A stretch of DNA of 63,949 bases, filler included, from Acidimicrobiia bacterium (GTDB lineage: Bacteria; Actinomycetota; Acidimicrobiia; Spongiisociales; CAZKJJ01), in the NCBI GenBank assembly GCA_046759765.1. It is 4 parts of 4 records of this genome, joined end to end, with 100 filler letters (N's around TTAATTAATTAA, not from the genome) between each part and the next. Parts side by side here need not be neighbours in the genome. Positions count along the whole stretch, not along the records: positions 1 to 17,723 come from JBHICV010000039.1; 3 more parts are not named here. One strand, given 5' to 3'. The first letter of the stretch is position 1, and every line of letters begins with the position of its first letter. This document shows, in pieces, positions 1 through 52,577 of this stretch. The notes beneath the pieces were generated by a model. The model saw nothing but the letters and a program-made list of their open reading frames with translations. It was not told the DNA's origin and did not search any database. Both the position numbers and the translations under genes were made by a program.

Positions 1-1
1 C

Positions 2-733
2 GGCAGCAGGGGGCTGGGACATCAGACGTGCACCGATCAGCTCAAGCTGATGGGCAGCGCCATGCAGAAACACGGGATCGAGGTCCCCGATCGGCAGCTC
101 GCCAGCGTGCCGGTCCAGTCCGCCGAAGGGGAGGACTACCTGGGAGCCATGGCCGCCTCGGCCAACTTCGCCTGGGCGAACCGGCATATCTTGGCGCACG
201 AAGCGCGCCGGGCATTCGCGGCCGCGTTTGGCCTGCCGCTGAACAAGATCGGCATGCACCTGGTCTACGACGTAGCGCACAATCTCGCCAAGATCGAAGA
301 GCACGATGTGAACGGACGAAGCCGCCAGCTTTGCGTCCACCGGAAAGGAGCGACTCGGGCCTTTGGCTCTGGTCACCCGAGCCTGCCCGAGGACATCCGA
401 CCCGTAGGTCAGCCCGTCTTGATCCCGGGAAGCATGGGAACGGCCTCCTGGGTACTGCGCGGGTTGGACACGAACGACGCTTTCTCGTCCGCCGCCCACG
501 GCGCAGGCCGGGTCATGAGCCGGGCCAAGGCGAAGAAAGTCGAGTCGGGCCACGACGTCCGGCGCGATCTGGAGCGAGAAGGGATCTCTGTCCGCCCGGG
601 CTCGGTGAAGCTCCTCTCAGAGGAAGCTCCCTACGCCTATAAAGACGTCGACGCGGTGGTCGACGTTTGTCAGGAGGCCGGCCTGGCCGGCAAGGTCGCC
701 CGCCTCCGCCCGGTGGGAGTGGTGAAGGGCTAA
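2..733 (+). CDS. rtcB: RNA ligase RtcB, 5'-partial
   Basis: GSRGLGHQ, YDVAHN, HRKGAT, PGSMG, HGAGR, EEAPxAYKD and C-terminal VVKG motifs; frame open to window edge. Confidence 0.95.
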   Translation, partial: GSRGLGHQTCTDQLKLMGSAMQKHGIEVPDRQLASVPVQSAEGEDYLGAMAASANFAWANRHILAHEARRAFAAAFGLPLNKIGMHLVYDVAHNLAKIEEHDVNGRSRQLCVHRKGATRAFGSGHPSLPEDIRPVGQPVLIPGSMGTASWVLRGLDTNDAFSSAAHGAGRVMSRAKAKKVESGHDVRRDLEREGISVRPGSVKLLSEEAPYAYKDVDAVVDVCQEAGLAGKVARLRPVGVVKG

Positions 734-734
734 G

Positions 735-791
735 ACGCGTTCTTGTCAATCTCAGTGCCGCTGGGCGCTATCTCGATTGACAGAAACGCGT
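735..791. repeat. Extragenic palindrome copy 1 (GTCAATC-N23-GATTGAC family)
   Basis: ACGCGTTCTTGTCAATC (735-751), 23-nt spacer, GATTGACAGAAACGCGT (775-791); arms complementary at 15/17. Confidence 0.9.
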
Positions 792-1696
792 AGCGCTTGG
801 CGGAGCTGGGCGATGACATTCCCCGGCGACCCGCGGAGATCTGCAGCGGTGTACCTGAGTACTCGATAGCCAACCATCAGGAGCCGGTTCTGACGCTCAC
901 GATCTCGTGTGAATGCAGCGGGGTCCGAGTGGTAAGCGTATCCGTCCAGCTCGATGAGCAGCCGGCGGTCCGGATACGCGAAATCAACGCGCCCGATGAC
1001 CCCGCGCGAGTCTGATATTTCACGTTGGGCCAACGGAAAAGGAAGGCCTTCCTTGACAAGCAGACGTCTGAACTGATCCTCTAGCTCGCTTTCAGTTGTC
1101 TCGGCCCACCTAGCACGGGCCTCCACCAACCCGCGTACCACTCTCACGCCGTTTCGCCCCTGCCGACCTAGATCCGTCACGATCTCCGCCATCTCCTCGT
1201 AGGACGTCAGCCCCTGCCTCAACGCTGCGTCAAGCGCACGCTCTGTCTGTCGGGGGTGCGCAGAACCCCCCAAATCGAGGATGGTTCGAGCCGGAGTCGT
1301 GACTGGGATATCCGAAGTGACCGTTACATACGGTTCGGCCAGATCCGTGGAACGGTGCAATACGAAGTGGCGGCCCCTCCATCTGGGCCTCGTCGTTGCT
1401 ACATGAACTGGGTACCGATCCCGATCAGCCAGCTCCCAGAGGATGGCGGCGGTCTGGTGGGACGCCACAGCTTCGTCAGCCACCGAAAGAACCGCCAAGA
1501 GAACGTCTTGGTGCCACGAAGAGGGGACTCCGGCCAACCGATAAACCGCCGGGGCCACCCGGATCCACGCCTGCCTGTCATGCAGGCGCTGGATTGATCT
1601 TGGACCAACACCAGCCTCGACAGCTTGCTGATGCGTAATCAAGCCGTACTGGCAAGCGGCGATGTGATTGACGTCGCTTTCAACTACAGGATCCAC
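752..1696 (-). CDS. AbiEi-like wHTH + DUF559 (Vsr-like) endonuclease protein
   Basis: N-term QYGLIT...WIRVAPAVYRL (AbiEi wHTH), central PVTTPARTILDL, C-term RVDFAYP-LLIELDG-YH-DRERQN-GYRVLRYT (DUF559). Confidence 0.88.
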   Translation of the reverse strand: MDPVVESDVNHIAACQYGLITHQQAVEAGVGPRSIQRLHDRQAWIRVAPAVYRLAGVPSSWHQDVLLAVLSVADEAVASHQTAAILWELADRDRYPVHVATTRPRWRGRHFVLHRSTDLAEPYVTVTSDIPVTTPARTILDLGGSAHPRQTERALDAALRQGLTSYEEMAEIVTDLGRQGRNGVRVVRGLVEARARWAETTESELEDQFRRLLVKEGLPFPLAQREISDSRGVIGRVDFAYPDRRLLIELDGYAYHSDPAAFTRDRERQNRLLMVGYRVLRYTAADLRGSPGNVIAQLRQALRVSVNRDSAQRH

Positions 1697-1735
1697 GTGC
1701 CTGAAGTATCAGATGTGTCACGTGTCTTCAATATG

Positions 1736-1790
1736 CGCGTTTTAGTCAATCTGAATCCCGCCAGGCGCCATCTCGATTGACAGAAACGCG
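1736..1790. repeat. Extragenic palindrome copy 2
   Basis: CGCGTTTTAGTCAATC-N23-GATTGACAGAAACGCG; 1770-1790 identical to 770-790 of copy 1, same orientation. Confidence 0.9.
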
Positions 1791-1797
1791 GACGGGG

Positions 1798-2256
1798 TTA
1801 GACCGCGGCCAGGGCCTTCGCGTAGGCCTCATGGGGCCGAGCCTCACCCAGTTCGTCGGAGAAGATGATGTTCCGGACGACTCCGTCGGCATCAAGGACA
1901 TAGGTGTAGCGCTTGGCGTAGCCGCGCCTGTCGTCAAAGCAGCCGTAGGCCATCGCTACTTCACCGTGCGGCCAGAAGTCGGACAGAATCGAGAACTGAT
2001 ACTCCTGCTCTACGGCCCAGCGGGCGTTGACCGCGATCGTGTCGCAAGTGATGGCAATCACGTTGGCGTCCATGCCGTCGAACACACCCAGATCGTCCCG
2101 GATGGCGCACAGCTCACCCTGACAGACGGACGTGAAGGGATAGGGGATGAAGACAATCAGCGACTTCCGACCGGCGAGATCCGACAGCGACACCTTCTGC
2201 AGGTTCTGATCCCGGAGAGAGAAGTCAGGTGCGGGCTTTCCGATCTCAGCGACCAT
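1798..2256 (-). CDS. Peroxiredoxin, AhpE/BCP-like
   Basis: APDFSLRDQN, PFTSVCQGE peroxidatic motif, LSDFWPHGEVA; ATG overlaps upstream TGA. Confidence 0.88.
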   Translation of the reverse strand: MVAEIGKPAPDFSLRDQNLQKVSLSDLAGRKSLIVFIPYPFTSVCQGELCAIRDDLGVFDGMDANVIAITCDTIAVNARWAVEQEYQFSILSDFWPHGEVAMAYGCFDDRRGYAKRYTYVLDADGVVRNIIFSDELGEARPHEAYAKALAAV

Positions 2257-4898
2257 CAACCACGCCCCACCTCTCGGGCCAACTCGAGAGTCTCGGGCAG
2301 CGTCAACGACCGGCCCCGGGCTTCGGCCTCAGCCTGCACATCCGCCGATACTCTCTGAGTGGCTGGGGAGATCTGTCTCTCGTACCACTCCCGCTCCGCG
2401 TAATTTGCGTGGACGCCTACCGAGTCTCGTAGCGCTTCTGTAGCCCACCAGAGTGCCATGGCATCTTGTGGTCGATCCTGCTCGTTGGCGAAGCCCGCCA
2501 CCGAACCGAGGCAGTGGCTTAGGCAGCCCAGATTGCCGATCTCCACGAAAGCGTCCAGGGCCTCATCGAATAAGGACGACGCCAGCTCCCTGTCGCCGCT
2601 GTACCAGGCAAGGTTCGCTCGCACTTCCAGAAGGTGGCCCAGGAGGTTGCGTTCCCCTAGCTGACGCCCAGCTGGTAGAAGTGTCTCGACAACTGCGAGC
2701 GAGCGTTCCTGCTCCTCATCGCTCCAGTCCGGTGAGCCGAGTTTGGTCAATGAGCTAAGCGCCTGGATGAAGCTGGCGTATCCCAGGCCGTGCTGATCCC
2801 CGATCTGACTAAAGACTGCCACCGCTTCGTTAACCAAAGAACCGAACTCGGCATCCGGACCGCTTCGGTAAACGCGAGCAGTTGCCCCATTGACCAGCGC
2901 CCAACCTTCGAGTCGCTTCGATCCCGAGGATCGAGCTAGTTCGACGGCTTCTGAAAGCCAGCTCTCCGCCTGTTCCGGGTCGGTAGTTCGAAACGCAAAC
3001 TCGCCCGCTCCGATCAAGACCCGAGCCCGAAGTTTCGGATCGACACCTGGGTCCTCTGCGAATAACTGCCGGTACCACCGTCGGCACTCGCCGAAGTGCG
3101 CTCGGAGCCACCAGAAGAAGGACAACCCGCCGGCCATCCGGAAAGCGGCCGTGTAGTCACCCCTGTCCACCGCCCGCTCCAGCACCACCCTCAGGTTGTC
3201 GTGCTCGGAATCGAAGACCGCCAGCGCTTCCAGCTGGTCTCTGCTCTGTACCTTGCGATGGTTGTGCTCCGCTACATCAATGAAGAATTCCATGTGCCGA
3301 GCAACGGTCTCTTCTTCCTCTTGCTCGGCGACCAGCTGCACCCATCCGTACTCGCGGATGGTCTCCAGCATGCGGTAGCGAGTCGAGCCGTCTAGCCGAT
3401 CGGCGATCACCAGCGACTGATCGACCAGGCTCGAGATGTGAGGCAGCGCGCCTACCGGACCCCACGACTCGGACGCACACACAGCCTCAACGGCCTCCAT
3501 CGTGAACCCGCCTCGAAACACGGACAGGTTGCGCATTAGCTCGCGCTCCTCGTCCGCGAGCAATTCGTAGCTCCAGCTGATAGCGGCTTCCAACGTCTCG
3601 TGTCTTGGTATAGAGGACCGGGCGGCGCCGAGAAGGGCAAAACGATCATCGAGCCGGACGGCGATCTCACTGGGCGAGAGGACACGAGCCTGGGCCGCGG
3701 CCAGCTCCAGAGCGAGCGGAATCCCGTCGAGGCGGCGGCAGATCTCTACCACCGCGGGTGCATCCTCGGGTTGCAGAGCGAACCCAGAGGTGGCCTGCGC
3801 TGCGCGCTCCGCGAAGAGGCGGACCGAGGGAGAGAGCTCTATCTCGTCCGCCTCACCCACATCAGGCACCGGCAGAGGCGGAACTTGCCACACGACCTCG
3901 CCGGCGATCCCCAGCGGCTGTCGCGAGGTAGCCAGGATCTTGACGTCGGGGCAAGCCCGGAGTAACTCGCCAACAAACTCGGCGACGCCCCGGATCAGAT
4001 GCTCACAGTTGTCCAGCGTGAGAAGGAGCATCTGATCCCTCATTGCCGCGATCAGCGTCTCCATCACCGGCCGATCGGCCTGCTCTTGGATGGAAAGAGC
4101 GCTTGCCACCTCCTTGGGAATGACCCCTTCATCGACGAGAGGTGCCAGCTCCACAAACCAAGCGCCCTCCGCGAACCGGTCCAGGAGATCGGCGGCTACC
4201 TGCAACGAGAGCCGGGTCTTTCCGACGCCCCCCGGACCGGCCAGGGTAAGCAGCCGCGCCTCGCCTACGAGCCGCTCGGCTTCGGATAGTTCACCTTCGC
4301 GACCGATCAGAGCCGTTAGCTGTGCCGGCAGATTGTGAGGGCTGCCCTCGAGCGACCTAAGGGCGGGAAACTCGGACCGGAGGCCAGGATGAAGTACCTG
4401 AAAGATCTCCTCGGGCCTAGTGAGGTCTTTAAGCAAATGCGCCCCTAGATCGAGCAGCTCAGCCTCAGCGGGGAGATCATCTCGGACCAGCTCCTGGGTG
4501 GCGAGACTAAGAACAATCTGCCCTCCGTGAGCCGTCGCCATCAGCCGCGCGGCTCGGTTGACCGACGAGCCGTAATAGTCGCCACCTCGCTCCTGCGCCT
4601 CGCCGCTGTGAAGTCCCATTCGAACCGCGAGCGGCTCCGGCAGATCCCAGTCCTCCGAACTCAGCCGGAGCTGCGCCTCAACCGTTGCGGCAACCGCATC
4701 GCCTGCCGCGGCGAATACAGCGTGGAATCCGTCTCCTAGCTGCTTGATCACGTGTCCGGAGTGCTCAGGAATGATCGAGCTGATGATCTCGTCGTGGCGG
4801 GCTACCGCCGTTGTCATCGGCTCGGAATGCTGCTCCCACAGGCGCGTGCTGCCCTCAATGTCAGTGAAGAGGAATGTGACGGTTCCGGAGGGGAGCAC
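2256..4898 (-). CDS. Class III nucleotide cyclase + STAND ATPase + TPR protein
   Basis: TFLFTDIEGST, GDGF, VRMGLHSG, VNRAARL; Walker A GPGGVGKT; LDNCEHL; LDGIPLALELAA. Confidence 0.9.
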   Translation of the reverse strand: MLPSGTVTFLFTDIEGSTRLWEQHSEPMTTAVARHDEIISSIIPEHSGHVIKQLGDGFHAVFAAAGDAVAATVEAQLRLSSEDWDLPEPLAVRMGLHSGEAQERGGDYYGSSVNRAARLMATAHGGQIVLSLATQELVRDDLPAEAELLDLGAHLLKDLTRPEEIFQVLHPGLRSEFPALRSLEGSPHNLPAQLTALIGREGELSEAERLVGEARLLTLAGPGGVGKTRLSLQVAADLLDRFAEGAWFVELAPLVDEGVIPKEVASALSIQEQADRPVMETLIAAMRDQMLLLTLDNCEHLIRGVAEFVGELLRACPDVKILATSRQPLGIAGEVVWQVPPLPVPDVGEADEIELSPSVRLFAERAAQATSGFALQPEDAPAVVEICRRLDGIPLALELAAAQARVLSPSEIAVRLDDRFALLGAARSSIPRHETLEAAISWSYELLADEERELMRNLSVFRGGFTMEAVEAVCASESWGPVGALPHISSLVDQSLVIADRLDGSTRYRMLETIREYGWVQLVAEQEEEETVARHMEFFIDVAEHNHRKVQSRDQLEALAVFDSEHDNLRVVLERAVDRGDYTAAFRMAGGLSFFWWLRAHFGECRRWYRQLFAEDPGVDPKLRARVLIGAGEFAFRTTDPEQAESWLSEAVELARSSGSKRLEGWALVNGATARVYRSGPDAEFGSLVNEAVAVFSQIGDQHGLGYASFIQALSSLTKLGSPDWSDEEQERSLAVVETLLPAGRQLGERNLLGHLLEVRANLAWYSGDRELASSLFDEALDAFVEIGNLGCLSHCLGSVAGFANEQDRPQDAMALWWATEALRDSVGVHANYAEREWYERQISPATQRVSADVQAEAEARGRSLTLPETLELAREVGRG

Positions 4899-4907
4899 CC
4901 CCAGAAG

Positions 4908-5969
4908 TTAGTCAGCGGCGACGTCGCGCAAGGGGGACAGGAAACGGTTGCGGGGGCCTTCCGCAAGGGATACGGGGCCGGCGCAACGTAAGACTCGAAC
5001 CGCCTCCGATCCAATCATGGAGCCGATCCTCTCGGCTTCGGACTCCACTTGGAGCCACCGGGCCCGAGCCCACGAATCGAAGGGCGCCACCTTGATCTCG
5101 AGATTGGAGTCGTCTGCTCCGAGGTCCCAGATGCCAACCACCCGGCCGCCTACGAGCACGACGGACGTGGCGTTCCCTCTCGGGTCGTAGACAAACGGAA
5201 GCCGATCCTCTTGAACGAGCCGGGAGCGGTCCCAGTAAGCCACCAGCAGCGCATCCCAGACGGGGAGCAGCCGGAGACCGCTTACGTGTTCGAGGCCCTC
5301 TGTGGAAGTGTCCGCCTCCGCGGCTGCCTCTGATGCCTGCTTTGCGGTCAGCCCCGACCACCAGCGAAAGTCCTCAACCGAGGCCGGGCCATACGCCTCG
5401 AAATACAGGCGGGCCAGCTCCCCCCGAGCATCCGAGACATCGACAGCCGCCGGATCCACCGAAGGCAGCCAGTTCTCCCAGCGCGCATAGGTGAAGCGAT
5501 CACTTCTCCAACTGCCGGTGACTATTGCTCTTACCACCCTGAACTCGGTCGCCATCAACGCAATCACGTACTTGAGGGCATCCGCGTCGCTCCGGTCCCC
5601 TGGATCGAGCCGCTTCCGAATCTCCGATGCGCTCAGAGGACCGTCGGCCAAGAGTTCGTACACGCGCCCAGCCCAGGTCTCGTAATCATCGGTGGCCAGC
5701 GCTTTGGCAACTATCGGCGTCAGGCCCTTGAGATGCTGCTCCTGGGTAGCCGGCGCGGCGACCTCGAGGAGCTCCAGCGGCACGATGTAAAGGCTCCCGC
5801 GCATGCAACGCACGCGGGCGGCTGACCGGTCCGCGTACAACACCCGGTCGAGATCCGAGAGCTCGAAGTCGTCAGCCCTGGCCAGCAGCGAGAGGTAGCA
5901 GGTCGGAGCAGTGCCATAGACGCCGATCGCTTGGGTTGTGAGCTCAAGAAGGGCGGCCCCGGTCGTCAC
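4908..5969 (-). CDS. AlkZ-like (HTH_42) winged-helix DNA glycosylase family protein
   Basis: YLSLLAR, MRGSLYIV, YFEAYGPAS-DF-WWSGL, LRLLPVWD, VLVGGRVVGIW. Confidence 0.75.
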   Translation of the reverse strand: MTTGAALLELTTQAIGVYGTAPTCYLSLLARADDFELSDLDRVLYADRSAARVRCMRGSLYIVPLELLEVAAPATQEQHLKGLTPIVAKALATDDYETWAGRVYELLADGPLSASEIRKRLDPGDRSDADALKYVIALMATEFRVVRAIVTGSWRSDRFTYARWENWLPSVDPAAVDVSDARGELARLYFEAYGPASVEDFRWWSGLTAKQASEAAAEADTSTEGLEHVSGLRLLPVWDALLVAYWDRSRLVQEDRLPFVYDPRGNATSVVLVGGRVVGIWDLGADDSNLEIKVAPFDSWARARWLQVESEAERIGSMIGSEAVRVLRCAGPVSLAEGPRNRFLSPLRDVAAD

Positions 5970-7192
5970 ACCTTTGGTGAGGCTCCGGCCTCGTACCGGC
6001 GTAGCTCCCGTCTGGCCACCGAGCGGATGTGAACCTCGTCGGGACCGTCCGCAATCTGCAGGGTCCTTGCATGGGCATACATGGCGGCTAGTGGAAAGTC
6101 AGCGGTTACCCCAGCCCCGCCGAAAGCCTGCATCGCTCGATCAATAACCCAGACGGCGGTTCTAGGAGCCACAACCTTGATCGCCGACACCTCGATTCGC
6201 GCACCCTTGACGCCAACCGTGTCGATCAGCCACGCCGTCTTCAACACGAGAAGCCGTGCTTGCTCGATTCGGAGCCTCGCCTCCGCGATCCAATCCTGCA
6301 CCACCCCCTGCTCGGAAATCGTCTGCCCGAAGGCTTCTCGCCCAAGCACCCGCTCGCACATGAGATCGAAGGCCCTTTCGGCCATTCCGATCGCCCGCAT
6401 GCAGTGGTGAATCCTCCCGGGACCGAGCCGGGCCTGCGCGATAGCAAACCCTGCACCTTCCTCGCCCAACAAGTTCTGAGCCGGAACCCGGACGCCGTCA
6501 AAGTTGATCTGTGGATGGCCACCCCGGTCGTGATACCCGAAAACATGAAGCGGGCGCTCGATCTCGACGCCCTTGGCGTCGAGGGGCACTAGCACCATGC
6601 TTTGCCGGTGGTAGGGGTCGGCGTCGGGGTTGGTAACCCCCATGACGATGCTCACCTTGCAGCGTGGACTCGCCGCTCCTGAAGACCACCACTTGCGGCC
6701 GTGCACGACGTAGTGGTCGCCGTCGGGCGTGATGCTGGTTCTGATGTTTGTTGCATCCGACGAGGCGACGTCCGGCTCAGTCATCGAGAAGCAGCTGCGA
6801 ATCTCGCCTTCCAGCAGGGGAACGAGCCACTTCTGTTGCTGATCCGGAGTCCCGAACATCGCCAGGATCTCCATGTTCCCGGTGTCCGGAGCAGAGCAGT
6901 TGAGCGCCTCGGGAGCCAGCCACGGGCTGCGGCCCGTTATCTCGGCCAATGGGGCGTAGTCGAGCACGGAGATGCCGGCCCCCCACTTCTCATCGGGCAG
7001 GAAGAGGTTCCACAAGCTCCGTGAACGGGCTTCTTTCTTCAGCTCCTCGACGATCGGAGGGTGGAAGTTGGGATCGGCGGCGGCTTCCATCTGCTGTTCG
7101 TAGACGGCCTCTGCCGGATAGACGTGACGGTCCATGAAGTCGAGGAGGTTCTCACGCAACTCCTCGACTCGAGATGAGAACGCGAAATCCAT
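5966..7192 (-). CDS. Acyl-CoA dehydrogenase (ACAD10/11-like)
   Basis: NCSAPDTGNME, FSMTEPDVASSDATN, AQARLGPGRIHHCMR, ADGPDEVH; start taken at MDFAFS. Confidence 0.93.
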   Translation of the reverse strand: MDFAFSSRVEELRENLLDFMDRHVYPAEAVYEQQMEAAADPNFHPPIVEELKKEARSRSLWNLFLPDEKWGAGISVLDYAPLAEITGRSPWLAPEALNCSAPDTGNMEILAMFGTPDQQQKWLVPLLEGEIRSCFSMTEPDVASSDATNIRTSITPDGDHYVVHGRKWWSSGAASPRCKVSIVMGVTNPDADPYHRQSMVLVPLDAKGVEIERPLHVFGYHDRGGHPQINFDGVRVPAQNLLGEEGAGFAIAQARLGPGRIHHCMRAIGMAERAFDLMCERVLGREAFGQTISEQGVVQDWIAEARLRIEQARLLVLKTAWLIDTVGVKGARIEVSAIKVVAPRTAVWVIDRAMQAFGGAGVTADFPLAAMYAHARTLQIADGPDEVHIRSVARRELRRYEAGASPKV

Positions 7193-7283
7193 CACTAAGC
7201 CTCGTCTTGGTGTTCGGCCCAGCGTAGAACCTACGCAAGCCACATCGAACTAGGCGCTCGGAGCAGCGGTAGCCTCAGAGCAG

Positions 7284-10200
7284 ATGGCCTGTCCCAATTG
7301 CGGCGCAGACACCGTTTCCGGTCAGAAGTTCTGCTTCGAGTGTGGAACTGAGCTGGCCGTGGCCTGCTCGAACTGTGAAGCCCCGTTGCCTGCCGGCGCC
7401 AAGTTCTGTGGGGAGTGCGGGACGCCGACCGGAGAGGCAATCACCGCGACAGCTTCACCTTCGGCCGCAGCGCCGGCGCCAGACGTCGCCGAACCGACCG
7501 CGGAGCGGAGGCTTGTCTCTGTTCTCTTTGCGGATCTGGTCGGATTCACGGCAACTTCCGAGCACCGCGATCCCGAGGAGGTCCGCGAGTTTCTGACCCG
7601 CTACTCCGAGCTGGCGACCGACACGATCCAACGCTACGGAGGCACCGTCGACAAGTTCATCGGTGACGGGGTGATGGCAATCTGGGGCACACCGACCGCA
7701 TTCGAGGACGACGCCGAGCGGGCAGTGCGAGCCGCGCTCGATTTGGCGCCCGACGTCGAGACCCTAGGTAACGAGTTCGGCGTTCCTGGATTGTCGGTTC
7801 GCGCCGGCATCGCTACCGGGGAGGCCGCGGTGACACTGGATGCGGGGTCCCACGGAATGGTGGCCGGGGATCTCGTGAACACAGCATCAAGGCTCGAGGC
7901 GGCGGCGGAACCGGGGACAGTCCTGGTCAACGAAGCCACTCAGCTAGCCACCAATGAAGCCATCTCGTACGAGCCGGCGGGTGACCTGACCCTCAAGGGC
8001 AAGACGCAGCCGGTTGCCGTGTGGCAGCCACTGCAGGTTGTCGCTATGCGTGGCGGCGCCGGCCGAGCCTCGGGCCTAGAAGCCCCCTTCGTCGGTCGGG
8101 TGGCCGAGCTCCAGCTGCTCAAGGACCTGTTTCAGGCAACAGTCCGGGACGAGCGAGCTCATCTCGTCTCGGTGCAGGGCATCCCCGGCATCGGCAAGAG
8201 CCGTCTTATCTGGGAGTTCGAGAAGTACCTGGACGGCTTGGCCGACCTCTTCTACTGGCACCAGGGACGGTCACCGGCCTATGGAGAGGGCGTCACCTTC
8301 TGGGCCTTGGGTGAGATGGTCCGCCGCCGAGCGGGCATCGCCGAGAACGATGATCACTTCTTCACCACTCTTCAACTGGACGCGATCGTGGACGAGTTCG
8401 TGCCCAAGGAAGATCGCCGATGGATCTCTACTGCCTTGCAGGTGCTCCTTGGAGTCTCAGACTCCCCCGGAGTTGAGCGTGACGAGCTCTTCGCCGCCTG
8501 GAGAACCTTCTTCCAGCATTTGTCCTCTCAGGCACCCGCAGTCATGGTGTTCGAGGATCTCCAGTGGGCTGACCATGGCACTCTCGACTTCGTCGAGTCG
8601 TTGCTCGAGTGGTCACGTGACTATCCGATCTTTGTCGTCACGTTGGCGAGACCCGAGCTACTCGACCGCCGCGAGAACTGGGGAGCTGGTCAACGGGGCT
8701 TCACGGGTCTGCACTTGGAACCGCTGTCACATCCAGAGATCGAGGAGCTGCTCACCGGTTTAGCTCCCGGGCTGCCGGACGACTTGGTAACCGGAATCGT
8801 CGAGCGATCCGAAGGAGTGCCGCTCTACGCCGTCGAGACGGTGCGGATGTTGATCGGCCAAGGGCACCTGGTCCCGGAAGGAGACGGCTATGTGCTTACG
8901 GGTGACCTGCCCGAATTGGCGGTGCCAGAAACCCTTCATGCGCTAGTCGCAGCTCGCCTGGACACCCTCGACCGCGACGACCGGCAACTTCTGCAGAAGG
9001 CCTCTGTCCTAGGACAGACCTTCCCTGCGAAAGGCCTGGCTTCACTTGCGGGTCTGTCCCCCGGCGAAGTCGAGCAAAGGCTCGAGCTACTCGTCCGGCG
9101 CGAGATCCTGAGCATCGAGGCGGACCCACGATCACCTGAACGAGGGCAATACAAGTTCGTGCAGGGCGTGATTAAGGAGGTTGCATACTCCAGCCTCGGC
9201 CGAGCCGAACGGGGCTCACTCCACATTCAGGTGGCCGAGCTTCTCGAGGAGCAAGGCGACGACGAGCTGGCAGGTGTCATCGCCTCCCACCTGGTCGACG
9301 CATATCACGCCGTGCCGCAGGCCGAACGAGCTGACGATCTGACGAGGAGAACACTGGAAGCCCTGGAATCGGCCGCGATCAGGGCCGGCACTCTCGGGTC
9401 ACACGCGCAGGCGGTTGCCCATCTCGAACAGGCGATGGACGTCTCCGTCGAGGCCGTCGAGCAAGCCGACCTGCAGGAACGAGCAGGGAGCTCAGCGGTC
9501 TTAGCCGGCCTGAACGAAGTCGCCCGCAGCCACTTCGCCAATGCTCTCGAGCACGCAAGAAGGCGGAGCGACCGTCAGGCCATTGCCCGATCGGCAGCCG
9601 GACTTGGCGGAGTGCTGCTCATGGAGTCCCAGGTCGACGAGGCAATAGAGCTCCTGGACTCCGTACGCAGCGAAATAGAGGGCATGGAAGCAACGACTGA
9701 TTCAGTCGTGCTACACGCGCAACTCGGCCGAGCGCACGCGTTTCATGAAAACGGACTCGAAGCGATGACAGAGATCGAGAAGGCCCTCACAGAGGCCGCC
9801 CGTCTCGACCTGATCGAGGTTGTGATGGACGCCCTCATAACAAAAGCCTGGGCACTCACTCTCCTCGGCCGCGAGCGGGAGGCGGAGGCGGTGACCGAGG
9901 GCGCAATGAGCTTCTCCGCCCGCCACGGTCTCACACGATCAGATCTGCGCGCCCGAAACAACATCGCCGCCTACTCCAGCTGGACCGAACCCGTCTGGAC
10001 ACTCGGGATCGTCCAGGACGGCTTCGAGATGGCCAGAAAGAGCGGCGACATGGACAACGTAGGCGTTCTCGGCTCGAAAGCGGCGTGGTCGGCGATCCAA
10101 ACCGGCGCATGGGACCTGGCAATGGACATCATCGATGAGTTACGCGAGGAGACGCACTCTTGGTTTGTGCGTAACCAGGTTGGATTCTCGCTGGCTGAAC

Positions 10201-10781
10201 TGCTGGCCAAGCGAGGTGAAATCGAGGCCGCAGAGGAGGTGCTCGAAGAGATGCGGCTGGAACTCGAGGCATCGACCTCCCCCCAGGATCGAGTGGGGTC
10301 CCTGTGGACCTACGGCTGGGTGGCTCTGGCCTCCGGCGACCCCACGTCGGCCCGGGAATACGCGTTGCAGGTGTTCGAGCTGTCGGACCAAGCGCAGTGG
10401 GTCGCGGTCGCGCACACGATCGGAATCCATGCCGCCATCTGGCAAGGGGAGGCTTCCGTGGTTTCCGACGCGATCAAGCTGGCGGAAGAGGTCAGGCTCG
10501 ACACACCGCGGCTGGAGGCATCGATACTCTCCGGGAAGGCAGCCGTTGCCGCGCTTGGGGGTGACCAGGAAACCGCAACGCAGCTCTTTGTCAAAGCGGC
10601 GGACATCTTTCGGGAGGTCGGGGTGCCGTTTGATCTCGCTCTCAGTCAGCTCGCCTGCGCGTCGCTCTTGGAGTCGGACCATGAGGCAGGTAGGGATGCC
10701 GCCGAAGAAGCCCGTGAGATCTTCACCGAGCTGGGCGCCAAGCCGTTCCTCGAGCGCCTCGACGAGGTGGCGAGGGCCTAG
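7284..10781 (+). CDS. Double zinc ribbon + class III cyclase + AAA ATPase + TPR protein
   Basis: four CxxC pairs, VLFADLVGFT, KFIGDGVMA, VNTASRLE, GIPGIGKS, FEDLQWAD. Confidence 0.9.
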   Translation: MACPNCGADTVSGQKFCFECGTELAVACSNCEAPLPAGAKFCGECGTPTGEAITATASPSAAAPAPDVAEPTAERRLVSVLFADLVGFTATSEHRDPEEVREFLTRYSELATDTIQRYGGTVDKFIGDGVMAIWGTPTAFEDDAERAVRAALDLAPDVETLGNEFGVPGLSVRAGIATGEAAVTLDAGSHGMVAGDLVNTASRLEAAAEPGTVLVNEATQLATNEAISYEPAGDLTLKGKTQPVAVWQPLQVVAMRGGAGRASGLEAPFVGRVAELQLLKDLFQATVRDERAHLVSVQGIPGIGKSRLIWEFEKYLDGLADLFYWHQGRSPAYGEGVTFWALGEMVRRRAGIAENDDHFFTTLQLDAIVDEFVPKEDRRWISTALQVLLGVSDSPGVERDELFAAWRTFFQHLSSQAPAVMVFEDLQWADHGTLDFVESLLEWSRDYPIFVVTLARPELLDRRENWGAGQRGFTGLHLEPLSHPEIEELLTGLAPGLPDDLVTGIVERSEGVPLYAVETVRMLIGQGHLVPEGDGYVLTGDLPELAVPETLHALVAARLDTLDRDDRQLLQKASVLGQTFPAKGLASLAGLSPGEVEQRLELLVRREILSIEADPRSPERGQYKFVQGVIKEVAYSSLGRAERGSLHIQVAELLEEQGDDELAGVIASHLVDAYHAVPQAERADDLTRRTLEALESAAIRAGTLGSHAQAVAHLEQAMDVSVEAVEQADLQERAGSSAVLAGLNEVARSHFANALEHARRRSDRQAIARSAAGLGGVLLMESQVDEAIELLDSVRSEIEGMEATTDSVVLHAQLGRAHAFHENGLEAMTEIEKALTEAARLDLIEVVMDALITKAWALTLLGREREAEAVTEGAMSFSARHGLTRSDLRARNNIAAYSSWTEPVWTLGIVQDGFEMARKSGDMDNVGVLGSKAAWSAIQTGAWDLAMDIIDELREETHSWFVRNQVGFSLAELLAKRGEIEAAEEVLEEMRLELEASTSPQDRVGSLWTYGWVALASGDPTSAREYALQVFELSDQAQWVAVAHTIGIHAAIWQGEASVVSDAIKLAEEVRLDTPRLEASILSGKAAVAALGGDQETATQLFVKAADIFREVGVPFDLALSQLACASLLESDHEAGRDAAEEAREIFTELGAKPFLERLDEVARA

Positions 10782-10785
10782 CTGT

Positions 10786-10850
10786 CGTTTCGTGTCAATC
10801 GCAGCCGTGGAAAGTGCGGCTCAGATTGACAGGAACGCGTAGGAACGCGT
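10786..10850. repeat. Extragenic palindrome copy 3, with 10-bp tandem duplication of the outer arm
   Basis: CGTTTCGTGTCAATC-GCAGCCGTGGAAAGTGCGGCTCA(23)-GATTGACAGGAACGCGT then AGGAACGCGT repeated (10831-10840, 10841-10850). Confidence 0.9.
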
Positions 10851-10851
10851 C

Positions 10852-11805
10852 TTAGCCCCCCAGGAGCGCCCGCCACCAGCGTGTGAGGAAGAAGGGCTTG
10901 CCCGGTCGCGGGAGGTCGGCCAGCACCGCCAGCTGCATATCTACGGGTGCGTCGCTCACCATGGCGTAGCCGCCCTTCGGCGTCTCCCAGACGTAGATCA
11001 CTTGGCCCGGGAAGAACTTGCGCTGGTAGGAGCCGCCGTCGATCTGAGCCGCTTCCACTCCGCTCAGTTCCGGTATCTCCAGCCGCGAGCCCGAGCTCAT
11101 GACCGAGAGTGAGAAGAAGCCATCGGAGTAGTAGGCCACCATGGTGCCCTCCGTCCCCGAATACACGTCAATACGGGAGAATCCGCCCACTGCGGCCGGC
11201 AGCCGGTCGGAGTCGAGTTCGCCTCCGTAGGCAACGAGCTGGGTGCGCTCGGCTTCCTCCATGGAGATCAGCTCCATCTCAGGCATGCCCGGCATGAAAG
11301 CAACGAACTCGCTCGTGCAGTACGAAGTCCCTGCAGCATTGAACGTTTCGGTGCGGAGTACTGCGCCGCTGGAGGCATCGAAACCGAGCAGGACCCGGAC
11401 CATCTCGCCTTCCCGGATCTGCACGGCGGTGATCCTTCTATCCAGCACTCGATCGACTCCCGCTATCTCAACCTCGTACCGAACAGTTGGGTCGGTGACG
11501 CCACCGCCGCTGACGGTGGCAACCCGTGAGTAGTCACCCGCCCGATCTGCGTACTCACCCTTGCGGGCGATGACCTCGGTATCGGACGTCCTGGCCTTGA
11601 TCACCGCCACGCCGCCTGATTGTTTGATGTCGGTCATCTGACTCACCACCCCATCCGGGGTTTGGCAGTGAACGAACTTCGTACCTGAGAACTCAGCCTG
11701 CGACGCTCTCTCGAAGAGCTCGTCCAGATCGTCGCTAGCTGTCGCCGGCAACGCCGCGAGCACCAGCCCCGTTGTCAACGCGCCGACGACCACGAGCCGC
11801 CTCAT
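10852..11805 (-). CDS. Secreted MucB/RseB-like sigma-E regulatory protein
   Basis: signal peptide; YEVEIAGVDRVLDR, D-SGAVLRTE, YSDGFFSLSV; last gene of sigma/anti-sigma operon. Confidence 0.65.
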   Translation of the reverse strand: MRRLVVVGALTTGLVLAALPATASDDLDELFERASQAEFSGTKFVHCQTPDGVVSQMTDIKQSGGVAVIKARTSDTEVIARKGEYADRAGDYSRVATVSGGGVTDPTVRYEVEIAGVDRVLDRRITAVQIREGEMVRVLLGFDASSGAVLRTETFNAAGTSYCTSEFVAFMPGMPEMELISMEEAERTQLVAYGGELDSDRLPAAVGGFSRIDVYSGTEGTMVAYYSDGFFSLSVMSSGSRLEIPELSGVEAAQIDGGSYQRKFFPGQVIYVWETPKGGYAMVSDAPVDMQLAVLADLPRPGKPFFLTRWWRALLGG

Positions 11806-12227
11806 TCGATGTTCTCGACTATCACGGGAACGACCTCGATCGGCGTGAACGTCGGCTCGAGCGAGTCGCGGGCCCGGAACTGGTTGGACAGATCGTCGAT
11901 GGGCACCTGCACTCCCGGCGGAGGGGGAGCCAGCACGGTCGCCAGCCCCACGAGAATCATCAGCGCGGCAGCCGCCGCTGCGGCCCAGGCCCGCGGACGG
12001 CGGAAGAGTGGGATCACCTTGGCGTCATGGTCGGCGAGCAGGGGCACGACGGAAGGCGGCATCTCGAGGATGGGCATCGAGCGAACAGCCGTCCGTGCGT
12101 CGTGGAGCTCCTCCAATTCGGCCCGGCATACGGAGCAGCCGGCCAGGTGCTCGGAAACTCGACGCTCCTCGGCGCCGGTGAGCTCGCCGTCGAGATGAGC
12201 GGAGAGAAGCTCGCCGAGATGGCTCAC
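11802..12227 (-). CDS. zf-HC2 membrane anti-sigma factor (RseA-like)
   Basis: LLSAHLDGEL, HLAGCSVC, one TM helix. Confidence 0.85.
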   Translation of the reverse strand: MSHLGELLSAHLDGELTGAEERRVSEHLAGCSVCRAELEELHDARTAVRSMPILEMPPSVVPLLADHDAKVIPLFRRPRAWAAAAAAALMILVGLATVLAPPPPGVQVPIDDLSNQFRARDSLEPTFTPIEVVPVIVENIE

Positions 12228-17723: not shown

Positions 17724-17823
17724 NNNNNNNNNNNNNNNNNNNNNNNNNNNNNNNNNNNNNNNNNNNNTTAATTAATTAANNNNNNNNNNNNNNNNNNNNN
17801 NNNNNNNNNNNNNNNNNNNNNNN
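17724..17823. other. Artificial contig linker
   Basis: N44-TTAATTAATTAA-N44. Confidence 0.98.
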
Positions 17824-26169: not shown

Positions 26170-26222
26170 CGCGTTCCTGTCAATCTCAGCCGCGCTTTCC
26201 GCAGTTCATATTGACAGGAAAC
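26170..26222. repeat. Extragenic palindrome copy 4 (inverted relative to copies 3 and 5)
   Basis: CGCGTTCCTGTCAATC-TCAGCCGCGCTTTCCGCAGTTCA(23)-TATTGACAGGAAAC; spacer 16/23 identical to reverse complement of copy 3 spacer. Confidence 0.88.
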
Positions 26223-33045: not shown

Positions 33046-33099
33046 GCATTTCGTGTCAATCCGAGCCGCGCAAAACGCGGCTGAGATTGACAGGAACGC
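33046..33099. repeat. Extragenic palindrome copy 5
   Basis: GCATTTCGTGTCAATC-CGAGCCGCGCAAAACGCGGCTGA(23)-GATTGACAGGAACGC; inner hairpin AGCCGCG/CGCGGCT. Confidence 0.9.
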
Positions 33100-35105: not shown

Positions 35106-35205
35106 NNNNNNNNNNNNNNNNNNNNNNNNNNNNNNNNNNNNNNNNNNNNTTAATTAATTAANNNNNNNNNNNNNNNNNNNNNNNNNNNNNNNNNNNNNNN
35201 NNNNN
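35106..35205. other. Artificial contig linker
   Basis: N-TTAATTAATTAA-N, 100 nt. Confidence 0.98.
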
Positions 35206-52477: not shown

Positions 52478-52577
52478 NNNNNNNNNNNNNNNNNNNNNNN
52501 NNNNNNNNNNNNNNNNNNNNNTTAATTAATTAANNNNNNNNNNNNNNNNNNNNNNNNNNNNNNNNNNNNNNNNNNNN
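52478..52577. other. Artificial contig linker
   Basis: N-TTAATTAATTAA-N, 100 nt. Confidence 0.98.

Follow-up and report, generated by a model that had tools for sequence, protein, structure and literature searches.

Our analysis shows that genes encoding a fusion of an AbiEi fold with a Vsr/DUF559 nuclease domain take part in a real, widespread, and clade-specific partnership with palindromic repeats. The genes of each AbiEi-DUF559 clade lie between copies of a fixed-length palindrome family specific to that clade, and this family is dispersed in tens of copies just past stop codons where the gene is present and decays upon gene loss. We propose, with a probability of roughly 60%, that the gene is a repeat partner whose AbiEi module retained the 49-bp operator, parted with its toxin, and acquired a Vsr-fold nuclease. 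The best reading of the system is a domesticated REP/RAYT-like partnership built from an antitoxin, its operator, and a nuclease, in which the protein would bind, cut, and spread its own repeats.

The window, i.e., the whole stretch of 63,949 nucleotides analysed here, consists of four contigs (C39, C40, C41, and C71) of one genome (2.73 Mb, 63% GC, 92% complete) joined via N-padded linkers at positions 17724-17823, 35106-35205, and 52478-52577; because these joins are artificial, distances across them are meaningless. On contig C39, a gene adjoined by rtcB and by an AhpC/TSA peroxiredoxin gene, and whose closest homologues are in records titled Acidimicrobiia, lies between two palindromes of a family named F1 (736-790 and 1736-1790), which are in direct orientation, 85% identical, exactly 1000 bp apart, and identical over a 21-nt end (Table 1). 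The downstream element (copy 1) contains the stop codon (752-754) together with the final ~12 codons of the gene, and further F1 copies lie at 10785, 26170, and 33046, the latter two on contig C40 of the same genome. No match to AbiEii (PF08843) was found anywhere in the 92%-complete genome. The first-pass annotation had reported two same-orientation palindromes of ~56 bp around the gene, the 21 identical nucleotides, the end of the gene within copy 1, the solo copies at three other loci, and the lack of an adjacent AbiEii toxin. All of this stands except the length, the conserved unit being 49 bp (739-787 and 1739-1787). Its view that the protein is not an antitoxin is likewise borne out as regards a working antitoxin of an adjacent toxin.

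Table 1. Features of the cassette and of the solo F1 elements, in window coordinates
Feature	Position	Strand	Remarks
Downstream F1 element, inner subtype B	739-787		12-bp arm, 25-bp centre, 12-bp arm; overlaps last codons and stop; hairpin z -3.9/-3.8
314-aa gene	752-1696	-	Residues 4-195, whole AbiEi fold (wHTH and C-terminal domain); residues 201-307, Vsr/DUF559 nuclease domain with invariant D238, E249, H256, D265
Putative leaderless promoter region, upstream element to start codon	1697-1738	-	Predicted; weak match in this copy
Upstream F1 element, subtype B	1739-1787		Direct orientation relative to downstream copy, 1000 bp away
Solo F1 element, subtype A	10788-10836		Directly past a stop codon
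Solo F1 element, subtype A	26173-26221		Contig C40
Solo F1 element, subtype A	33049-33097		Contig C40

An iterated profile search placed F1 at 72 loci genome-wide, with 0 matches in the reversed-genome control. The only other AbiEi-DUF559 gene of this genome, on contig C55 and 36% identical to the C39 gene, has on either side doublets belonging to a second family, F2, found at 74 loci (control, 0), and de novo clustering yielded no third palindrome family in the genome among 58 leftover candidates. Same-family repeat pairs 0.1 to 4 kb apart that enclose one main open reading frame (ORF) occur six times in the genome, and two of these ORFs are the AbiEi-DUF559 genes. This background comes from a hand check of same-family pairs; the crude gene caller was set aside for it because it placed the start of the C39 gene wrongly and reported only the paralogue, 1 of 2304 genes, as bracketed. 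A 410-codon ORF located between two F2 copies (G000 C180:3029-4477) reads like what we take to be an IS481-type transposase and is perhaps an insertion into an F2 doublet.

The hairpin z-scores of the seven strands folded (five window copies) range from -3.8 to -5.9, none of 200 shuffles being as good, which together with the empty reversed-genome control indicates that the palindromes are not due to chance. One 49-bp frame fits 65/72 F1 and 70/74 F2 copies, and both families share the same layout, with a 12-bp outer arm, a mismatch zone at positions 13 to 15, an inner stem, and a short loop. The spacer between exact arm pairs (hexamers) is exactly 25 nt in 52/56 F1 and 54/65 F2 cases, and doublets are spaced by 60 bp in 26/28 F2 and 3/4 F1 cases (29/32 together). 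No target-site duplication was seen in the 32 doublet linkers or in the flank consensus; as for a simple 60-bp tandem duplication at the origin of the doublets, the linkers give no support to it. By their centres, F1 elements fall into inner subtypes A (29), C (19), and B (15), the cassette copies being B and the three window solos A. Linkage between the left and right halves is weak within subtypes.

Bracketing is a property of the protein family at large. Among 207 loci scored (L001-L213, leaving out three duplicates and three hits that were partial or unrelated), 176 unique full-length proteins were kept, 167 of them with enough flank, and a score of at least 20 defined a shared repeat. The upstream and downstream flanks shared a repeat in 131/167 homologues, against 2/600 cross-locus and 0/167 shuffled controls; the proportion was 98/111 within the order and 12/24 loci elsewhere in the phylum (two unpublished loci left out), while an earlier subset gave 70/99 homologues against 7/148 neighbouring genes, all these counts overstating independence as the genomes are related. 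The family is present in 85/151 genomes of the order and in 25/81 genomes across the phylum (two unpublished included). An unbiased estimate of the element span is looser, with 47 to 51 bp in only 25/47 elements from homologues.

Proteins with F2 flanks group into a single clade (support, 98) spanning three host families, and the F1-type-flanked proteins form another (support, 89). Arm identity reaches 0.66 for close proteins from different host families (81 pairs), compared to 0.33 for distant proteins from the same host family (199 pairs) and 0.43 for paralogues within one genome (28 pairs); the Mantel r is 0.22 against a maximum of 0.12 in 999 permutations, with rows that are not independent. 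The repeat sequence thus tracks the protein clade and not the host. Both predictions made from the window, that homologues are bracketed above random genes and that the repeat co-varies with protein phylogeny, are therefore supported. Two groups of homologues lack a shared flank repeat: seven loci in family f10 (L019, L158, L159, L161, L162, L164, and L167), with catalytic residues intact, and seven in family f25 (L291-L294 and L314-L316). Whole unflanked clades with intact residues imply that the enzyme can persist without bracketing, and these clades, which may have taken on another role, provide natural controls. Two repeat pairs spaced by about 1 kb, at L154 and L155 (G060 and G037), enclose no AbiEi-DUF559 gene.

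Repeat abundance was surveyed in 151 genomes of the order with three repeat patterns derived from gene flanks, these flanks supplying only 2 to 4 of the copies and the patterns covering few of the many families. The F1 pattern occurs in eight genomes (4 to 52 copies), six with an F1-flanked gene, one with a contig break, and one with an empty site. In G060, which has no F1 gene, the contig stops where the gene would be expected, so that this genome is uninformative. The F2 pattern also occurs in eight genomes, four with the gene (20 to 60 copies), two without it that keep 25 to 29 copies, and two with a single copy, and the third pattern is found in 34 genomes, 31 with some homologue. Altogether, the three patterns match 32/85 gene-bearing versus 4/66 gene-lacking genomes (hand tally). 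As first suggested from the window, repeat abundance is thus mostly tied to the gene, with exceptions in G017 (29 copies), G037 (25), G007 (23), and G063 (9), which carry repeats without a detected cognate gene.

The history of the cassette is one of long residence. In G001, which belongs to another genus, the rtcB-gene-peroxiredoxin order is kept with F1 flanks and 57% protein identity; this is the one other genome of the host family examined for an empty site at this position, and it carries the cassette. In G016, G027, and G006, no ORF for rtcB was found around the peroxiredoxin gene among ORFs of at least 140 aa. In other host families, the F1-clade gene adjoins a Nudix gene instead, implying that the cassette has moved, though rarely. 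The DNA is present in hydrothermal-vent metagenome runs from one study, and one of these runs may be where it came from. Contig joints skipping the cassette were absent from four runs of one study (window positions 1 to 12000), which is no evidence of absence because contigs drop rare variants. Orthologous solos mostly hold their position within a genus, and their identity over 14 comparisons is 93% in the arms, 71% in the centres, and 86% in the flanks, this last value being biased upward by the choice of the best-matching side. In one orthologous doublet, the centre type in each genus is that of its own cassette. The first-pass annotation had suggested that the cassette would be an autonomous form; being old and syntenic in G001, with solos that mostly stay put and no target duplication seen, it is better called domesticated than autonomous.

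Empty sites occur at two loci. At the Nudix-decarboxylase locus, G067 carries a 1.2-kb cassette, G053 a single F1 element that has decayed, and G046 a decayed remnant, with 15 intact F1 matches in G067 against 0 and 4 in G053 and G046, respectively; the G053 and G046 empty sites fit a loss of the cassette by recombination followed by decay. The site past acnA holds an F2 cassette in G006 and G027, a single F1 element in G017 and G037, and a third-clade cassette in family f5. The solo left in G017 and G037 is a member of the other family, which simple direct-repeat recombination does not explain, and this hints that elements overwrite one another there. Hence, the earlier proposal that recombination between the flanking copies leaves one solo repeat agrees with the single decayed solo in G053 and G046 and disagrees with the acnA site of G017 and G037. 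Across the loci collected (L036, L039, L041, L043, L046, L049, L224, and L225), the aconitase 3' end is occupied, depending on the genome, by a cassette of the F2 clade, a cassette of a third clade, or a solo F1 element. At another locus, L264 (G017:C36:68605-68729), we observed a ~120-bp GC-rich stretch of purine/pyrimidine runs, shorter in G006 and G037, which is possibly another repeat family, and at L264:3284-3333, an 85-bp segment that includes an element of the third family is found in G017 and not in G037.

The protein itself combines two known folds. Pfam models matched DUF559 (36.4 bits, over the cut-off), MTES_1575 (37.1 bits, just under the cut-off), and AbiEi_4 (22 bits, under the cut-off), and PADLOC AbiEi models matched with a best E value of 8e-38. 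The AlphaFold model (pLDDT, 92) aligns with AbiEi 6y8q over residues 4-195 (Z 13.5, rmsd 3.6, 183 aligned), with the I-Bth0305I catalytic domain 3r3p over residues 202-307 (Z 12.2, rmsd 3.0, 96 aligned), and with the Vsr-fold protein 3hrl over about residues 201-307 (Z 12.3). An HUH tyrosine transposase was not indicated by Pfam or by two fold searches, which gave AbiEi and Vsr instead, nor was a GIY-YIG single-domain nuclease by Pfam or the fold search. The catalytic-type residues D238, E249, H256, and D265 are kept in 131/131 flanked and 26/26 unflanked homologues (157/157 scored), so that the nuclease looks intact, yet is not confined to flanked genes. The homodimer prediction for the protein scored 0.30 against a mark of 0.42 and carries no weight here.

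A further link between protein and repeat is the operator geometry. The Streptococcus agalactiae AbiEi operator is an 11-bp repeat around N27, also described as 23-3-23, of 49 bp (PMC3985639), with one AbiEi monomer on each half (PMC3985639, PMC7319586). The 12-bp arms and 25-nt spacer of F1 and F2 add up to the same 49 bp and the same geometry. On this basis, we take the repeats to be operator-type sites belonging to the AbiEi module. Binding of the repeat by its cognate protein is very probable. According to the published proposal, in which the wHTH sits on the outer arms and the C-terminal domains point inward, the nucleases would be brought to the centre. Covariation leans in the reverse direction, with two tests that disagree: the partial r between arms and the C-terminal domain of AbiEi is 0.31 over all pairs and 0.02 in 33 disjoint pairs, and that between centre and wHTH is 0.07 and 0.45, respectively. 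Thus, the nuclease may face the element ends or the 11-bp linker instead.

We propose a model in which two protomers would each occupy one half of a duplex element, in the manner of AbiEi on the 23-3-23 operator, and this would fix both the 49/50-bp length and the 60-bp doublet spacing. The DUF559 domains would introduce nicks or cuts at a fixed distance, at the centre or slightly outside the ends, and repair from another copy would then rewrite the 25-bp centre, homogenise the family, and occasionally seed new copies or doublets. The gene itself would move rarely, be lost via recombination between its flanks, and otherwise be inherited vertically like a RAYT, probably since the gene or the 3'-end hairpins benefit the host. 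We somewhat favour such nuclease-driven upkeep or spread of the repeats. A bolder version, to which we give slightly less than an even chance, is that an antitoxin operator became a self-propagating repeat, the AbiEi-nuclease fusion copying or rewriting its own 49-bp operator and being able to overwrite, at a shared site, elements that belong to rival paralogue families; the overwriting is suggested by the F2-to-F1 swap past acnA, with different clades at that locus. Several observations count against the preferred explanation: the unflanked homologues with intact residues, the repeats kept in genomes where no cognate gene was detected, the looser span estimate in homologues, the inconsistent covariation, and the commonest solos (subtypes A and C), which differ in their centre from the cassette copies (subtype B).

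The same partnership could act on a single-stranded hairpin or cruciform, the AbiEi module binding the 12-bp outer stem and the Vsr-fold domain nicking the mismatch zone at positions 13 to 15, with control of incoming ssDNA or arm-to-arm repair as the outcome. This is unlikely, about one chance in five in our judgment, even though the stem-and-mismatch layout of both families and the z-scores suit it, Vsr nicks at T:G mismatches (PMC3239194), and SsnA cuts its own repeat only as ssDNA (PMC11893778). The F1 inner stems differ among subtypes A, B, and C yet remain self-complementary (6.8 pairs versus 5.5 with shuffled halves), which fits hairpin recognition too. However, within subtypes, the inner pairing is not above that of shuffled halves (A, 7.2 versus 7.8; C, 7.1 versus 7.9), F2 pairing equals the shuffle (5.5 versus 5.6), and the strict 25-nt spacer and AbiEi-operator length are explained more simply by two protomers on a duplex.

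Another reading, which we hold improbable, makes the protein only a binder, as an autoregulator or chromosome organiser, the copies being regulatory or 3'-end structural sites spread otherwise. AbiEi is a proven autorepressor on its 49-bp operator (PMC3985639, PMC7319586), and in 130 flanked homologues, the upstream copy ends at a median of 45 bp before the start codon, beside a leaderless-type -10 signal (A at -11 in 61% and T at -7 in 61%); the positional stability of solos across a genus would also suit a binder. The element lies upstream of this weak, putative -10 signal; the AbiE operator covers -35, -10, and +1. Autoregulation leaves the downstream copy unexplained, and the invariant nuclease residues argue against a mere binder. 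Moreover, with genes called crudely, the neighbours of F1 solos are convergent in 26/56 cases (background, 201/1509) and divergent in 3/56 (background, 377/1509), the solos being at a median of 8 bp past a stop codon, and the neighbours of F2 solos are convergent in 11/37 and divergent in 4/37 cases. Solos directly past stop codons point to a REP-like placement and not to a regulon. Finally, an orphan antitoxin or stand-alone defence nuclease, bracketed incidentally since repeats are common, would account for the strong PADLOC AbiEi matches, the unflanked clades, and the weak NCBIfam matches to the anti-phage proteins ProA (8/43) and Hhe (4/43), which presumably arise through the nuclease domain, but it is very improbable given a genome without AbiEii and the search of mobile elements (0 phage matches and only 3 plasmid records), and its incidental bracketing is largely refuted by the clade-specific counts above.

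The preferred reading, a repeat-partner gene of antitoxin origin, places the system close to several known ones. As in REP/RAYT systems (PMC3686654, PMC3733652), a single gene is flanked by cognate palindromes whose extragenic copies number from tens to hundreds, every clade of the enzyme is paired with a particular repeat class, and high abundance needs the cognate gene and is disturbed by its loss. The enzyme is, however, a fusion of an AbiEi fold with a Vsr/PD-(D/E)xK domain and not an HUH tyrosine transposase. The elements measure 49 to 50 bp, have a fixed spacer, and are conserved in the arms at either end; the half-site consensus of F1 and F2 lacks a terminal GTAG tag. Here the flanks are in direct orientation, and among homologues either direct or inverted ones occur. 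The NTS/SRM repeats with their Ssn nucleases (PMC11893778) resemble it in the repeat-gene-repeat arrangement, the homologue-specific repeats, and a nuclease in place of a transposase, but Ssn is a small single-domain GIY-YIG ssDNA nuclease, and the main text of that paper does not mention DUF559, AbiEi, or Vsr. As the enzyme class differs, the system is a member of neither group. The type IV antitoxins AbiEi and Rv2827c (PMC3985639, PMC7319586) share the whole two-domain fold and the 11-N27-11, 49-bp inverted repeat. Here, in contrast, the nuclease is fused and the operator-like site flanks the gene at either end and recurs at some 70 positions past stops instead of only at one promoter, and since there is no toxin, this is not an AbiE system. 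The EDxHD homing endonuclease I-Bth0305I, a dimer cutting a long pseudo-palindromic site, also joins an N-terminal DNA-binding part to a Vsr-like catalytic domain (PMC3239194); unlike it, the present gene is a free-standing intergenic cassette without intron or intein, its DNA-binding module is a different one, and its site is present many times in the genome.

How most families of palindromic repeats in bacteria arose and are maintained is a standing question, and the repeat partners in the literature examined are only HUH-type RAYTs and GIY-YIG Ssn proteins. Mycobacterial stem-loop families include Myt-1 and Myt-8 (PMC2267715), and the available parts of PMC3710099, PMC3632139, and PMC2267715 do not tie AbiEi-DUF559 proteins to repeats. 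A literature search covering few subscription papers and no supplements found no paper tying such fusions to repeats, which points to an enzyme-repeat partnership undescribed so far. Antitoxin and defence annotations would be put right by such a partnership, and a family that generally goes by the label "AbiEi antitoxin" or "DUF559 protein" gains a concrete candidate substrate, readable from the flanks of each gene. The operator-geometry match outlines a specific way in which the regulator of a toxin-antitoxin system could have turned into a repeat partner, and it indicates how binding and cutting can be assayed. If the self-propagating-operator reading is true, a third, independently evolved enzyme class would stand behind REP-like repeats and be widespread in Actinomycetota, and its members would form a natural library of nucleases of about 300 aa with clade-specific 49-bp targets.

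The same architecture, AbiEi (COG5340) with a YcjD/Vsr-like domain (COG2852), is found in the 283-aa Rv1073 of Mycobacterium tuberculosis, an uncharacterised gene that PMC13366182 treats only as a conserved hypothetical antigen, in a main text without the word "repeat". In another member of the Mycobacteriales, a Tsukamurella record with a DUF559-annotated homologue, palindromes that match by eye flank the gene on both sides, in inverted orientation, at L318:1340-1475 and 2300-2430.
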